In this document: positions 16,229-25,815 of the stretch, one piece after another
Numbering within the stretch: position 1 is the stretch's first letter
Layout: each line of letters starts with the position of its first letter
Assembly (NCBI GenBank): GCA_944388705.1
Contig: CALXJU010000004.1
Coordinates: forward strand, 1 to 61,578
Source of the DNA: an uncultured Clostridia bacterium
GTDB taxonomy: Bacteria > Bacillota > Clostridia > TANB77 > CAG-508
DNA: 61,578 nt
Direction: 5' to 3'
Notes under the pieces: generated by a model
Database searches by the model: none
Seen by the model: only the letters and a program-made list of their open reading frames with translations
Told to the model about the DNA's origin: nothing
Translations under genes and position numbers: made by a program

Positions 16229-17455
16229 ATGGCAAGAGACAACAAAATTGACGCAACAACAACATTAAAGGAGGGATTGGCACTTTGTCCATTAGATGGG
16301 CGGTATTCTCAAATCAGTAAGGATCTTTCTCCGTACTTCTCTGAATATGCTCTGGTAAAAAACAGAGTAAGAGTTGAAGTACTGTGGTTATGCTTCTTGT
16401 TAAAGAATGTCAAAGGTTCTGAAATTTTGGATTCTTTTGACATCAAACGACTTCCGGAGATTATGACTATCTATGAGAATTTTTCTGGAGACTCTTATGT
16501 AAGAGTTAAAGAAATCGAGGCAGACACTAATCATGATGTAAAAGCGGTGGAACTGTTTGTTGCCGAAAAACTTAAAGAAATGGGGTTTGATAATCTTGTT
16601 AGTTTTGTGCATATTGGTTGCACATCAGAGGACATTTCAAATGTTTCTTATGCAACAATGATTTCAGGTGCACTTTTTGCTGTATGGATTCCTGCAGCTG
16701 AAAAACTGATTAATGAATTATCGACAATTGCTGTTTTTCATGCTCACACACCTATGCTTGCACACACTCATGGTCAGCCTGCAACACCAACTACTGTTGG
16801 AAAAGAACTTATGGTATATATATACCGCATGCGTAAATCTTTAGAAAACATTAAATCTATTAAGATTTATGCTAAGTTCAATGGTGCAACTGGTAACTAT
16901 GCAGCAATTTCTGTTGCATTTCCTAATGACAATTGGCAGGTACTTTCAAAGACTTTTATCCAAGATTATTTAGGATTGAATTTTAATCCTATTACAACTC
17001 AAATTGAAAGTCATGACTACATCTGTCACATTGCAGATGGTATTCGCCACTTTAACAATGTCCTTTTGGATTTTGATGTTGATATGTGGCTGTATATCAG
17101 TATGGAGTACTTTAAACAGTTGGTTGTCAGTACAGAGGTTGGTAGTAGCACCATGCCACACAAAGTCAATCCAATTAGATTCGAGAATAGCGAATCTAAT
17201 ATTGACATGTCTAATGCTATTTTTACAGCATTATCCAACAAGTTGCCGCGTTCTCGTATGCAACGTGATTTGTCTGATTCCTCTTCTCAGAGAAACAGAG
17301 GTAAAAACATCTCTAAAGAGGCAATTCATGATTTTATCAAATCTCTTGATATGCTTTCTGATGAAGATAAGTCTACACTTCTTAATTTGACTCCTTCAGA
17401 CTATGTAGGTCTTGCCAGCAAAATTATAGCTGACAATAGCAAAATTTTATTCTAA
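16229..17455 (+). CDS. purB: adenylosuccinate lyase (E. coli-type PurB) with an internal in-frame deletion of about 64 codons; possibly non-functional
   Basis: Aligns along recalled E. coli PurB (PLDGRYS, TNHDVKAVE, HTHGQPATPTT, GSSTMPHKVNPI, MQRDLSDS). It then jumps from ...QRN directly to RGKNISKEAIHDF..., skipping the LGVGIGY...KLKELT segment. Confidence 0.8.
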   Translation: MARDNKIDATTTLKEGLALCPLDGRYSQISKDLSPYFSEYALVKNRVRVEVLWLCFLLKNVKGSEILDSFDIKRLPEIMTIYENFSGDSYVRVKEIEADTNHDVKAVELFVAEKLKEMGFDNLVSFVHIGCTSEDISNVSYATMISGALFAVWIPAAEKLINELSTIAVFHAHTPMLAHTHGQPATPTTVGKELMVYIYRMRKSLENIKSIKIYAKFNGATGNYAAISVAFPNDNWQVLSKTFIQDYLGLNFNPITTQIESHDYICHIADGIRHFNNVLLDFDVDMWLYISMEYFKQLVVSTEVGSSTMPHKVNPIRFENSESNIDMSNAIFTALSNKLPRSRMQRDLSDSSSQRNRGKNISKEAIHDFIKSLDMLSDEDKSTLLNLTPSDYVGLASKIIADNSKILF

Positions 17456-17559: not shown

Positions 17560-17748
17560 ATGAAGTTTACAGTGACAATTCGGTATCCAAATGGAAAGAT
17601 AACAACTTATGAGAATGTTCCTGGATCATTACTAGAATATGGTGCTAGAACTAATTATTGCCGTTTTACAGATAAAGATGGCAAATCACATATTATTATT
17701 GGTGCCATCATAACTTGTGATGAGGAAACTTCAGAAGATGCATTTTGA
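17560..17748 (+). CDS. hypothetical small protein (62 aa)
   Basis: ORF with AAGGAGG RBS and its own GC-rich terminator. Confidence 0.5.
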   Translation: MKFTVTIRYPNGKITTYENVPGSLLEYGARTNYCRFTDKDGKSHIIIGAIITCDEETSEDAF

Positions 17749-17865: not shown

Positions 17866-18243
17866 TTACTTTTTATATATTTTATATTTATCACATAAAT
17901 TTAATGTACTTCTATTAGATATTATTTCTTTTGGTATCATATACATATCAGTTTCTTTTGTTACTACAAATAAATAATCAACATTTGTATCTATAACAGT
18001 TTTATATGTATTTCCTTTAGTTCCTCCACAACTTTTTAATGCTACTTGATAATTTCCATATTTAGTTTTACAAGATGTATATTTTACTTGTACACTCTCT
18101 ATTTTATTATCTTTATCTATTAATAAATCATAATCTTGGGTATCATTAAGTGGAATTGATACTATATATCCATTTGTAGTAAAATACGCTATTGCAATTC
18201 CTAATCCACAGTTTCCTTTTTGTTTATTTGTATAATCTATCAT
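17866..18243 (-). CDS. PD-(D/E)XK endonuclease of the group I intron-associated type (I-Ssp6803I-like family), free-standing
   Basis: 125 aa. KQKGNCGLGIAIAYFTTNGYIVSIPLNDTQDYDLLIDKDNKIESVQVKY fits the family pattern (KG...GY.V..P..D...YDL..D....VQVKY), giving a D-x(n)-(E/Q)-x-K core. Confidence 0.6.
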   Translation of the reverse strand: MIDYTNKQKGNCGLGIAIAYFTTNGYIVSIPLNDTQDYDLLIDKDNKIESVQVKYTSCKTKYGNYQVALKSCGGTKGNTYKTVIDTNVDYLFVVTKETDMYMIPKEIISNRSTLNLCDKYKIYKK

Positions 18244-18259
18244 TTCTTCATCTCCCCAT

Positions 18260-18296
18260 AAAAAAAATAAACTTAGAAGAGTATTCTTCTAAGTTT
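18260..18296 (-). terminator. strong intrinsic terminator immediately after tRNA-Tyr
   Basis: AAACTTAGAAGA/TCTTCTAAGTTT perfect 12-bp stem, 4-nt loop, then A-TTTTTTTT on the minus strand. Confidence 0.8.
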
Positions 18297-18299
18297 GGG

Positions 18300-18600
18300 T
18301 GGTGGACAGGGATGGATTCGAACCATCGTACTCGTATGAGAACAGATTTCTTACTACTATAGTTTTCACTACCATATACATGTTTGTAGTCTGGACTTTC
18401 TCTTCATCTCTTTTAGATGCCTGGTATAAAGTCTCTACACTCGAAATTTCTTTCTAGCTCGGGATTATCATCAGCATTATCTGTTAAGACTTCCCCGAAT
18501 TAGCCAAGTTTTCACTATACAATTCCTTGTATAGGCTGCAATTTCTGCTTGTTCAGCAAAGCATACAGTCTGCCGCCTTTAGCCACTCGGCCACCTGTCC
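18300..18600 (-). tRNA. tRNA-Tyr (anticodon GTA), class II, interrupted by a 215-nt intron in the anticodon loop
   Basis: Exon 1 (18565-18600) is GGACAGGTGGCCGAGTGGCTAAAGGCGGCAGACTGT. Exon 2 (18300-18349) is AAATCTGTTCTCATACGAGTACGATGGTTCGAATCCATCCCTGTCCACCA. Joined, they give an 86-nt tRNA with loop CTGTAAA, a long variable arm and an encoded CCA. Confidence 0.85.
18350..18564 (-). ncRNA. group I intron (IC3-like) inserted between U35 and A36 of tRNA-Tyr
   Basis: The intron follows a U and ends in G. Hairpins fit P2 (CTATACAA/TTGTATAG), P3 (CTTGG/CCAGG), P8 (CATCT/AGATG) and P9 (ACTAC/GTAGT). Core strings AATTCGGGGAAGTCTTAA and GTGTAGAGACT resemble the recalled Azoarcus tRNA-Ile intron. Confidence 0.75.
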
Positions 18601-18633: not shown

Positions 18634-18710
18634 TGGTGCTCCCGCTAGGACTTGAACCTAGGACCCACCGGTTATGAGCCGGTTGCTCTGACCAACTGAG
18701 CTACGGGAGC
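18634..18710 (-). tRNA. tRNA with CAT anticodon: tRNA-Ile2 (lysidine type) or elongator tRNA-Met; not an initiator
   Basis: Cloverleaf GCTCCCG...CGGGAGC-A-CCA with anticodon loop CTCATAA. The paired 1:72 position excludes fMet. The overall sequence resembles recalled B. subtilis tRNA-Ile(CAU). Confidence 0.8.
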
Positions 18711-18751: not shown

Positions 18752-18780
18752 AGTATAATCTATTTTTGTATCTTTGTCAA
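18752..18780 (-). promoter_or_regulatory. sigma-A promoter of the tRNA operon
   Basis: Minus strand TTGACA-17 nt-TATACT. Confidence 0.6.
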
Positions 18781-24161: not shown

Positions 24162-25799
24162 CTAAAACAATAATATTTTTCTATTTAATTCATCTAGATT
24201 TGTTATTCCTTCTAGTACTTTATTTATTCCATCTACACATAGTGGTTTATATTTTCCTAATAATGCTTGTTTTTTTATTTCAATACTTGAAGCTCCATTC
24301 ATTATTAATTCTTTTATATCATCATCTATATCTAATATTTCAAATATTCCTATTCTGTCATAATATCCTGTATTATTACAATAATCACATCCGATTGCTT
24401 CATATGTTTTTATGCCTTTTAAGTCAAATTCTGTATTATACCTTTTTCCTATTTTTTCTATTATATTTTTTTCTTCTTGTGTAAATTCTCTTTCTCTTCT
24501 ACATTTTGGACATAATTTTCTTACTAACCTTTGTGATATACTTGTTGCTAATGTACTTGCTATATCATAATCTGGTAATCCTATTTTTCTTAATCTTGTT
24601 ATTACTTCTACTGCATCAATTGTATGTATTGTAGATAATACATAATGTCCTGTTTGTCCAGATTGTATTGCTATTTCTGCTGTTTCTTTATCACGAATTT
24701 CTCCTACTAGTATTATATCTGGATCTTGTCTTAATACTGTTCTTAATGCATCAGAAAATGTTGTCTTTACATCAACTTCTATTTGATTTAACCCATCTAT
24801 ACGAATTTCTACCGGATCTTCTATTGTTGTTATATTTATTTCTGGTCTATTTAAATAATCTATAAAACTATATAATGTTGTTGTTTTACCTTCTCCTGTT
24901 GGTGCTGCTATTACTGTTATACTATTTCTTTTATTTATACTTTTATTTAATTCTGCTTCTGTTCCAGGATATCCTAATTCAAATATATTTCTTATATTTG
25001 AATTTTTCTTTAATAATCTTAATACAAATTTTTCTCCATATACATTTTTCTGTGAAGATACACGTATGTTATAATCGTCATACATCAATATTCTACCATC
25101 TTGTGATTCTTGTTTTTCTTGATGCATATTTGATATTGCTTTCAATCTTCCTATTATTTGTGGTTGTTTATCTTTTGGTAAAGATGTTGCTGTAAATAAT
25201 TCTCCATCTATTCTATATCTTACTCTTACTTCATCTTTTTCTGGTTCTATATGTATATCACTTGCTCTTTTTTCCATAGCTGTTCTTATTACTGAATCTA
25301 CTATTTGTGTAATATTATCATCTTGTCCAAGTCTTCTCATATCTTTATCAGCTGTTCCACCTAGATTTCTTAGAGCTACTTCTATTAGATTTCCAAATGT
25401 TATATATGGTTCTATTACTAACCCTTTATTTAACATTAATAATCTAATTGTATCTATATTTCTTGCATTTGTAGTATCTGCAAAACATACTTTTATCTTA
25501 CCATTTTCTATATCAAAAGGTATTGCTTTATTTCTTCTTGCTATTTCTAATGAAATATAATTAAGTACATCTATTCTTATTTTTTCTGGTGATAATATTA
25601 TACCTTTTACTCCTATAATTTCTCCTATTGCTTCTATTAATACTGTTGAATCACATACATTTAATTCATTTAGTATTTCTCCTATTTTTTTGCTTGAGTC
25701 TCTTTTTTGTTCCTGTAAAGCCATTTCTATATCTGCTTCTGTAACTATTCCTCTTTTTACTAGTTCAATTCCTATTGGTTGACGTTTTCTTACATCCAT
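24162..25799 (-). CDS. pilB: type IV pilus assembly ATPase PilB (GspE family) with N-terminal T2SSE_N/MshEN-like domain
   Basis: Walker A PTGEGKTTT, plus GEIRD and tetracysteine CPKC...CDYC motifs. Start placed at the second ATG (25799), 7 nt after GGAGG; the ORF extends to 25805. Confidence 0.85.
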   Translation of the reverse strand: MDVRKRQPIGIELVKRGIVTEADIEMALQEQKRDSSKKIGEILNELNVCDSTVLIEAIGEIIGVKGIILSPEKIRIDVLNYISLEIARRNKAIPFDIENGKIKVCFADTTNARNIDTIRLLMLNKGLVIEPYITFGNLIEVALRNLGGTADKDMRRLGQDDNITQIVDSVIRTAMEKRASDIHIEPEKDEVRVRYRIDGELFTATSLPKDKQPQIIGRLKAISNMHQEKQESQDGRILMYDDYNIRVSSQKNVYGEKFVLRLLKKNSNIRNIFELGYPGTEAELNKSINKRNSITVIAAPTGEGKTTTLYSFIDYLNRPEINITTIEDPVEIRIDGLNQIEVDVKTTFSDALRTVLRQDPDIILVGEIRDKETAEIAIQSGQTGHYVLSTIHTIDAVEVITRLRKIGLPDYDIASTLATSISQRLVRKLCPKCRREREFTQEEKNIIEKIGKRYNTEFDLKGIKTYEAIGCDYCNNTGYYDRIGIFEILDIDDDIKELIMNGASSIEIKKQALLGKYKPLCVDGINKVLEGITNLDELNRKILLF

Positions 25800-25815
25800 T
25801 TTCATTCCTCCAATC

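Follow-up and report, generated by a model that had tools for sequence, protein, structure and literature searches.

How does a bacterial tRNA-Tyr gene that is split within its anticodon loop by 215 nucleotides (nt) give rise to a tRNA, and why does a small endonuclease gene follow it? We examined this locus in a 61,578-nt contig of an uncultured Clostridia bacterium (assembly GCA_944388705.1, contig CALXJU010000004.1), the whole of which is referred to here as the window. The explanation that we regard as very probable is that an ordinary chromosomal tRNA-Tyr(GUA) gene carries, between U35 and A36, a small IC3-like self-splicing intron that lacks an open reading frame (ORF), and that a mobile endonuclease cassette lies downstream of it.

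A group I intron in the anticodon loop of tRNA-Tyr

Joining positions 18600–18565 to 18349–18300 of the minus strand produces a canonical class II tRNA-Tyr(GUA) of 86 nt, as called by ARAGORN on the joined exons. The original prediction, made from the letters of the window, had proposed this tRNA, and on re-reading the sequence we found its coordinates and sequence elements to be as described. Exon 1 (18565–18600, minus strand, 36 nt) supplies the 5′ strand of the acceptor stem, the D arm, the 5′ strand of the anticodon stem and the loop bases C32, U33, G34 and U35; its 3′ end reads ...GCAGACUGU, the last four bases of which, CUGU, are the exon strand of the paired region P1. Exon 2 (18300–18349, minus strand, 50 nt) starts with AAAUCUGU, ends in CCA and supplies A36, A37, A38, the 3′ strand of the anticodon stem, the variable and T arms, and the 3′ strand of the acceptor stem. 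At the ligated junction GGCAGACUGU is followed directly by AAAUCUGUU; in the joined tRNA the acceptor stem is 7 bp, the variable arm is long and the T-loop is TTCGAAT, with A73 and a CCA encoded in the gene. On the genomic sequence, ARAGORN gives tRNA-Tyr(gta) i(37,215) when introns are permitted, whereas with default settings it reports no tRNA-Tyr in the window, only tRNA-Met at 18634–18710 and tRNA-Thr at 70–145.

The insert (18350–18564, minus strand) is a 215-nt, ORF-less group I intron that starts with AUGC and ends with UAAG. In E-value mode on a 521-nt stretch, the Rfam covariance model Intron_gpI (RF00028) matched positions 18568–18374 of the minus strand over its entire length (model positions 1–253 of 253; 42.1 bits, E = 1.9e-9). 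The original prediction would have fallen with the lack of any Intron_gpI match; the match found is significant, though under the gathering score, and an Rfam scan of the window at gathering cut-offs returned no intron, only two ordinary tRNAs. The motifs AAUUCGGGGAAGUCUUAA and GUGUAGAGACU are present in the intron, and the Azoarcus-type strings to which they had been likened agree with the Ile2 seed in the Williams supplement. Predicted folding of the 301-nt precursor is likewise more stable than that of shuffled versions (z = −3.9). The helices P2, P3, P8 and P9, the uridine at the 5′ splice site and the terminal guanosine (omega-G), all of which had been proposed, are borne out by the covariance match, by ARAGORN and by covariation among 112 homologues. 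In the window alone the splice junction has a one-base ambiguity (CUGU/A...G/A or CUGUA/...GA/). Among the 112 homologues the first intron base is G in 59 and A in 53; the 59 introns that start with G fix the junction at U-1/omega-G, between anticodon bases U35 and A36.

We drew the secondary structure on the window sequence, in which a window coordinate equals 18601 minus the position in the precursor tRNA (pre-tRNA). P1 pairs pre-tRNA positions 33–37 with 61–65, with U36.G62 at the splice site and the guide GCAG at window positions 18539–18536, and its loop holds an extension hairpin (41–46/52–57; window 18560–18544). P2 (67–74/79–86; window 18534–18515) is capped by a GGAA loop and is followed by P3 (93–97/177–181; window 18508–18504 and 18424–18420). 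P4 (103–108/137–142), P5 (111–113/132–134) and P5a (118–120/127–129) lie within window positions 18498–18459, and P6 (143–145/160–162) and P6a (147–150/155–158, with a GAAA loop) within 18458–18439. P7 is formed by positions 166 and 168–172 with 203–208, leaving A167 bulged (window 18435–18429 and 18398–18393), and P8 by 182–186 with 192–196 (window 18419–18405). P9 (211–215/244–248), P9a (219–221/226–228) and P9b (229–233/238–242, with a GAAA loop) fall within 18390–18353, and omega-G is pre-tRNA position 251 (window 18350). By our own reading P10 can comprise only about 2 bp, with exon AA paired to the UU 5′ of the guide. By inspection, the compact architecture (P2 present, no P5abc extension, P2 and P9 capped by GNRA loops) and the core strings shared with classical bacterial tRNA introns such as that of Azoarcus would suit a tentative placement in subgroup IC3.

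The folded intron is conserved across gut Clostridia

To place the intron among its relatives we scanned a bacterial genome collection with a core motif, AATTCGGGGAA-N(35-65)-GTGTAGAGACT. The motif pair occurs in at least 120 DNA stretches from many bacterial phyla, and in about 100 of these ARAGORN, with introns allowed, calls a tRNA gene that is split by an insert spanning the motifs. The predicted split tRNAs (loci L001–L120 in our numbering) include Leu, Met/fMet/Ile2, Arg, Thr, Phe, Ser, Asp, Asn, Ile and Ala by raw ARAGORN calls of isotype and position, and the phyla with this IC3-type core motif in split tRNA genes include Saccharibacteria and other Patescibacteria.

With a junction-specific pattern (the D and anticodon arms of tRNA-Tyr, then NNNCTTTG) we found the same tRNA-Tyr junction in at least 119 species-representative genomes, 117 of which were called as tRNA-Tyr(gta) i(37) with ORF-less introns of 214–250 nt. 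Their hosts are nearly all gut metagenome-assembled genomes (MAGs) named 'Clostridia bacterium' or 'Clostridium sp. CAG:354/508/567/575'. Covariation was counted over 67 base pairs on an alignment of 112 distinct pre-tRNAs. Across P1–P9, 97.7% of cells hold standard pairs, compared with 35–43% when the 3′ partners are slid by one to three columns. Changes on both sides of a pair, that is, compensatory changes, occur in 25 of the 67 pairs (429 cells), and the observed covariation score was reached by none of 500 column shuffles. The compensated pairs lie in P2 (7/8), P3 (3/5), P5/P5a, P6a (4/4), P8, P9a and P9b. By contrast, P1 (CUGU/GCAG) with its U.G pair, P7 and omega-G are invariant in all 112 sequences, and P4 is invariant or nearly so.

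Intron-less tRNA-Tyr genes with exons 92–98% identical are present in at least 19 sister genomes; the matches to the intron-less pattern as a whole were dominated by Burkholderiales. A tRNA-Met(CAU) gene lies directly upstream of tRNA-Tyr at 90 of 112 intron-containing and 17 of 18 intron-less loci, and intron-containing and intron-less relatives alike have one tRNA-Tyr per 8-kb locus. From this shared position and the single tRNA-Tyr per locus it follows that the interrupted gene corresponds by orthology to the normal tRNA-Tyr gene and is no additional copy of it.

A predicted splicing pathway

From the sequence, structure, conservation, covariation and orthology described above we infer that the precursor is spliced and that the reaction is autocatalytic. 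The primary transcript would probably start at a promoter-like site (TTGACA-17-TATACT; 18752–18780, minus strand; 11 of 12 consensus positions, a pattern match only), which lies upstream of a two-tRNA unit whose first gene is tRNA-Met(CAU) (18634–18710, minus strand; called by ARAGORN, Rfam tRNA 73.4 bits), and would end at a terminator-like hairpin of 12 bp with a T-run (18269–18296, minus strand) that separates the 3′ end of tRNA-Tyr from the endonuclease ORF. Equivalent hairpins lie before the endonuclease ORF in relatives. In the transcript, exon CUGU and guide GCAG would pair as P1, placing a U.G wobble at the splice site, and the intron would fold into a P3–P8 core with a P3/P7 pseudoknot. 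An exogenous guanosine would then attack after U35 in the first transesterification, and in the second the freed 3′ OH of U35 would attack after omega-G, with the 2-bp P10 (AA/UU) helping. The predicted product is the 86-nt tRNA-Tyr, and modification of the anticodon loop and aminoacylation would come only after splicing.

Three points weigh against this reading. The Intron_gpI score of 42.1 bits is below the Rfam gathering cut-off of 50; the intron is AT-rich (37% GC), and high Mg2+ or a protein helper may be needed in vivo; and the covariation controls ignore shared ancestry. The low score would also favour the view that the intron is an inactive remnant within a tRNA pseudogene, with tRNA-Tyr supplied by another gene. 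We consider this highly improbable. The exons are intact, the core, the U.G pair and omega-G are invariant, and the helices have been kept by compensatory changes in more than 110 species; the locus is moreover the orthologue of the normal tRNA-Tyr gene, and among the matches listed no assembly has both an intron-containing and an intron-less tRNA-Tyr, a weak negative obtained by comparing assembly prefixes by eye. Given the effect size and the number of pairs changed on both sides, and despite controls that take no account of kinship, the maintenance of a folded ribozyme in these tRNA-Tyr genes is hardly in doubt.

A free-standing I-Ssp6803I-family endonuclease gene follows the tRNA

A gene of 125 codons (17866–18243, minus strand), which lies beyond the interval of the original prediction, begins 56 nt after the CCA of tRNA-Tyr, beyond the terminator hairpin, and is preceded by the ribosome-binding site (RBS) GGGGAG. 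Its product belongs to the I-Ssp6803I family of PD-(D/E)XK endonucleases: it matches the Pfam family PDDEXK_5 (PF11645) with 69.2 bits (cut-off 26.1; E = 4.7e-19) and, by sequence, the I-Ssp6803I structure (PDB 2OST) with E = 1.2e-4. An AlphaFold model built with database homologues (predicted local distance difference test, pLDDT, 86; predicted template modelling score, pTM, 0.82) retrieved chains A–D of 2OST as the top four Foldseek hits, with template modelling (TM) scores of 0.70–0.76. Residues D37, D39, Q52 and K54 never vary and line up with YDL...VQVK of 2OST. We found 1,732 relatives in the protein database at E ≤ 1e-5; all 120 of those listed carry PF11645, and none of these 120 has a name beyond 'hypothetical protein'. 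Amino acid identity across many species is 60–78%, and the median ratio of non-synonymous to synonymous substitution rates (dN/dS) among intact copies is 0.21, indicating purifying selection. The endonuclease is not intron-encoded: its ORF lies outside both the intron and the tRNA gene, and 117 of 117 Tyr introns (214–250 nt) are ORF-less.

The endonuclease gene as a probable mobile cassette

At the 106 intron-containing loci with enough downstream sequence, we found an intact homologue of the endonuclease in 46, a decayed one in 10 and none in 50. Intact homologues start about 55–90 nt after the tRNA, and decayed ones carry stop codons or are fragments. The ORF was present at none of 17 intron-less loci (Fisher p = 2e-5, uncorrected, for loci among the matches listed and with kinship ignored), and its presence is patchy in every exon and intron subtype. 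Locus L143, which has the ORF, is colinear with L005, L223 and L164, which do not, save for a cassette of about 400 nt; this begins with the RBS, ends with the stop codon and sits 40 nt beyond the tRNA, immediately past the T-run of the terminator.

Starting from the endonuclease protein, we confirmed 133 loci and retained the best 80. In these 80 the ORF directly follows an intron-containing tRNA-Tyr in 53 cases and lies 0.5–1.1 kb after one in 3, follows an intron-less tRNA-Tyr in 4, stands in other contexts in 11 and is too close to a contig end in 9. The four loci with the ORF after an intron-less tRNA-Tyr (L387, L393, L413 and L423; endonuclease at about 1501–1860) have intact catalytic motifs, and three of them have a canonical anticodon arm. 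Among the ectopic copies, L396 has a 3′ piece of tRNA-Tyr just upstream (GAGTACGATGGTTCGAATCCATCCCTGTCCACCA, at about 1390–1425), and L379, L402 and L425 have one about 100 nt upstream of the ORF (GTACGATTGTCCTGCCCACCA). These 3′-half fragments run from the variable arm onward or have the T arm deleted, and exon 2 looks to have been carried along with the moving cassette. Other ectopic copies are preceded by conserved non-coding elements (about 190 nt upstream of the ORF at 1501 in L391, L395, L421 and L428; about 75 nt in L370, L411 and L429) that end in GGCACCA and a terminator hairpin, one group with a promoter-like TTGCCA...TATGTT. Searching the regions next to ectopic copies with Rfam, even at E ≤ 1, returned no intron and no known RNA; the GGCACCA-ending elements could be novel small RNAs or strongly diverged tRNA remnants.

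Comparison of the window with another assembly, L433, reveals a mosaic. Identity is about 91% in MtaB, a 102-amino-acid ORF and the promoter region and 100% in tRNA-Met and in both exons; the intron has 1 mismatch in 215 nt; the endonuclease ORF is identical in 378 of 378 nt, the next 85 nt are 96% identical, and identity beyond them is 70–84%. This is the pattern that recent gene conversion or homing of the tRNA–intron–endonuclease block would leave. Differences within the block cluster at 18246–18256, at the RBS (GGGGAGATGAAG versus ATTGGAGCGAAA), and at 18280–18283, in the terminator loop, and may reflect tuning of endonuclease expression. Just downstream of the cassette, the otherwise identical assembly L434 has 191 extra bases at about 17297, inside the purB ORF (16229–17455, plus strand), and a 62-amino-acid ORF of the window (17560–17748, plus strand) is absent from L433 and L437, both of which have the identical endonuclease gene; there is therefore indel polymorphism at this place. 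From the cassette boundaries and the mosaic, the endonuclease gene is most likely a discrete mobile cassette that has recently been exchanged between strains together with the tRNA/intron block.

How the endonuclease and the intron are related

The distribution of the cassette bears on what the endonuclease cuts. One model is collaborative homing, a concept established for F-CphI and psbA (PMC6083498), in which the enzyme would cut intron-less tRNA-Tyr at or near the intron site, within the pseudo-palindromic anticodon arm, as I-Ssp6803I does in tRNA-fMet, and the intron would protect its host; break repair would then copy the intron and the endonuclease gene together. The family of the ORF speaks for it, since I-Ssp6803I has a 23-bp pseudo-palindromic target (PMC3384342), as do the association of the ORF, intact or decayed, with 56 of 106 intron-containing but 0 of 17 intron-less loci among the matches listed, the position of 56 of 60 tRNA-Tyr-adjacent copies beside an intron-containing gene (within the best 80 of the 133 loci), and the near identity of the tRNA-Met–intron–ORF segment between strains whose flanks have diverged by 9–30%. 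However, the other 4 of these 60 copies follow an intron-less tRNA-Tyr, three of them with a canonical anticodon arm, and these four loci argue against the simplest form of the model, with the intron as the host's shield against its own endonuclease (PMC6083498). Alleles with and without the ORF both occur on intron-containing genes, where an exact insertion or deletion 40 nt past the tRNA separates them, and the association of intron and ORF is only semi-quantitative, being drawn from the matches listed with kinship ignored. In view of the four ORF-containing intron-less loci we do not take strict collaborative homing as the main reading of the ORF; both the proposed cut at the intron site and the joint copying by repair seem to us rather unlikely.

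An alternative that approaches an even chance is that the endonuclease is directed at alleles without the ORF, at or close to the place where its own gene inserts (the 3′ end of tRNA-Tyr, the terminator or the downstream spacer). With a similar probability, the intron, 90–300 bp away, would merely be co-converted, or would be linked and vertically inherited. The exact boundaries of the roughly 400-nt cassette, from RBS to stop codon and just after the terminator T-run, fit such targeting, as do the existence of ORF-containing intron-less loci, the tRNA-Tyr 3′ fragments just upstream of four ectopic copies and the patchiness of the ORF within every intron subtype. The enrichment of the ORF beside intron-containing alleles would then have to come from linkage or shared ancestry. 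It is improbable, in our estimate, that the 125-amino-acid protein has instead been domesticated, for example as a splicing helper or in another nuclease role, and is not a selfish homing enzyme. The low dN/dS of intact copies and the 60–78% identity kept across many species would suit a domesticated protein, but the distribution is patchy with 10 decayed copies, ectopic paralogues exist, about half of the intron-containing genomes have no endonuclease gene, and the DNA is 100% identical across strains whose flanks have diverged.

We tentatively propose, with a confidence that stays distinctly below an even chance, that the ORF-less tRNA-Tyr intron and the free-standing endonuclease form a two-part mobile unit that spreads in this clade of gut Clostridia by double-strand-break repair. 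If true, collaborative homing, known so far from phages, would have a cellular counterpart in a tRNA gene and with a PD-(D/E)XK enzyme, and a homing endonuclease would have been caught outside the intron, a possible intermediate to, or from, an intron-encoded endonuclease.

Genomic setting

The locus lies among chromosomal genes (MtaB, RNase J, GltX, PurB, a ROK kinase and type IV pilus genes) in DNA of about 23–31% GC. We considered and rejected a phage or plasmid origin and an assembly artefact. Distant blastn searches of the locus against phages gave only short matches of 50–95 nt covering 13–23% of the query; megablast against plasmids gave no match, and the neighbours are chromosomal housekeeping genes; and an assembly artefact was set aside on finding the same order of tRNA-Met, tRNA-Tyr i(37,215) and ORF in five independent metagenome assemblies. 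Elsewhere in the window, a PilB/GspE-type ATPase (24162–25805, minus strand) belongs to a type IV pilus cluster (PilB, PilT, PilC) and has an N-terminal stretch that resembles an MshE-type motif for binding cyclic di-GMP, at 35.5 bits against a cut-off of 38.

Implications for annotation and intron mobility

Introns of this class are fixed or frequent throughout a clade of uncultured but abundant gut Clostridia, where at least 119 species genomes carry one. Routine annotation misses these intron-split tRNA-Tyr genes: default ARAGORN reports no tRNA-Tyr and the Rfam gathering cut-off excludes the intron, so such genomes appear to lack tRNA-Tyr. The anticodon itself would be assembled by splicing, and should the genome have no other tRNA-Tyr gene, a ribozyme would be needed to decode tyrosine codons. 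The adjacent endonuclease gene also makes this a natural, well-sampled case in which to ask what brings ORF-less introns and endonuclease genes to move together, as it offers presence/absence polymorphism, decayed copies, ectopic copies and a signature of recent transfer between strains.

Comparison with known systems

The original prediction took the tRNA-Tyr host and the insertion site to be previously unknown. This did not hold: in the Williams 2020 preprint (bioRxiv 10.1101/2020.01.27.920355), which extends the four classical classes of bacterial tRNA intron to 21, they already form the class Tyr.4Ug. Its seed, Mba143.Tyr.4Ug, is given there as lying in tRNA-Tyr after the fourth base of the anticodon loop, with U-1, omega-G and P1 CUGUAA...UUGCAG; the preprint files all the classical bacterial tRNA introns under IC3, applies a threshold of 18–20 bits and remarks that the Rfam model it used had 12 seeds, none of them bacterial. 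Searches of the peer-reviewed literature returned no tRNA-Tyr group I intron beyond this preprint, and the cases named in the tRNAscan-SE 2.0 paper are confined to fMet and Ile2. The window intron and the Tyr.4Ug seed share the tRNA-Tyr host, the CUGU/ site, U-1, omega-G, the guide UUGCAG and P2–P9 with GNRA loops. They differ in that their global identity is only 63%, the flanks in J3/4–P4 and P7 diverge (CUAAUUCGGGGAA versus GAUAACGGUGAAA), and the window intron has an additional hairpin in the P1 loop. The preprint is computational and mentions neither experiments nor an adjacent endonuclease gene. The window intron is thus neither a new kind of intron nor in a new host; it represents a new lineage, very widely distributed, within a class that was already on record in 2020.

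Outside the Tyr set, the nearest relatives are introns in tRNA-Thr(UGU) of the same clade of gut Clostridia (L006, L010, L013, L040, L043, L045, L055, L058, L084, L115 and L117), whose identity to the window intron is 70–78% over the full length and reaches 83% between P3 and omega-G. They differ in being inserted after loop position 5 and in having the guide GCA, a long intron-internal P1 and the 3′ end UAUG in place of UAAG, and there is no I-Ssp6803I-like ORF within these loci. One MAG, Lapin-027__bin8, contains a Thr and a Tyr intron together (L084 and L131). The similarity of the Thr and Tyr introns and their joint occurrence suggest that an intron moved between tRNA genes within the clade and that its guide sequence changed. 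Like the window intron, the IC3 intron of Azoarcus pre-tRNA-Ile(CAU) is ORF-less, about 205–215 nt long, built on the core AAUUCGG(C/G)GAA and GUGUAGAGACU, and capped by GNRA loops on P2, P6a and P9; the Azoarcus-type Ile2 seed is nevertheless only 56% identical to it, and the Azoarcus intron sits in Ile2 at loop position 5, whereas the window intron is much more AT-rich.

For the endonuclease, a close parallel is the tRNA-fMet intron of Synechocystis PCC 6803, which encodes the homing endonuclease I-Ssp6803I, a tetramer whose close homologues are reported to be mostly cyanobacterial (PMC3384342). Both systems combine a group I intron in an anticodon loop with a small PD-(D/E)XK enzyme of PF11645 and the same fold, and the motifs PLxD...YDL...VQVK are common to I-Ssp6803I and the window protein. 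However, the I-Ssp6803I gene lies inside its intron, whereas the window gene lies after the tRNA terminator, in Clostridia, and the two proteins are only about 26% identical. In its arrangement the window locus also resembles the psbA intron with F-CphI in cyanophage S-PM2 and mobE with the nrdB intron in phage T4, where an intron that is ORF-less, or whose ORF is defunct, stands beside a free-standing endonuclease gene that could set it in motion. Those phage cases of collaborative homing concern protein-coding genes and enzymes of the Endo VII or HNH type, whereas the window has a tRNA gene and a PD-(D/E)XK enzyme on a bacterial chromosome.

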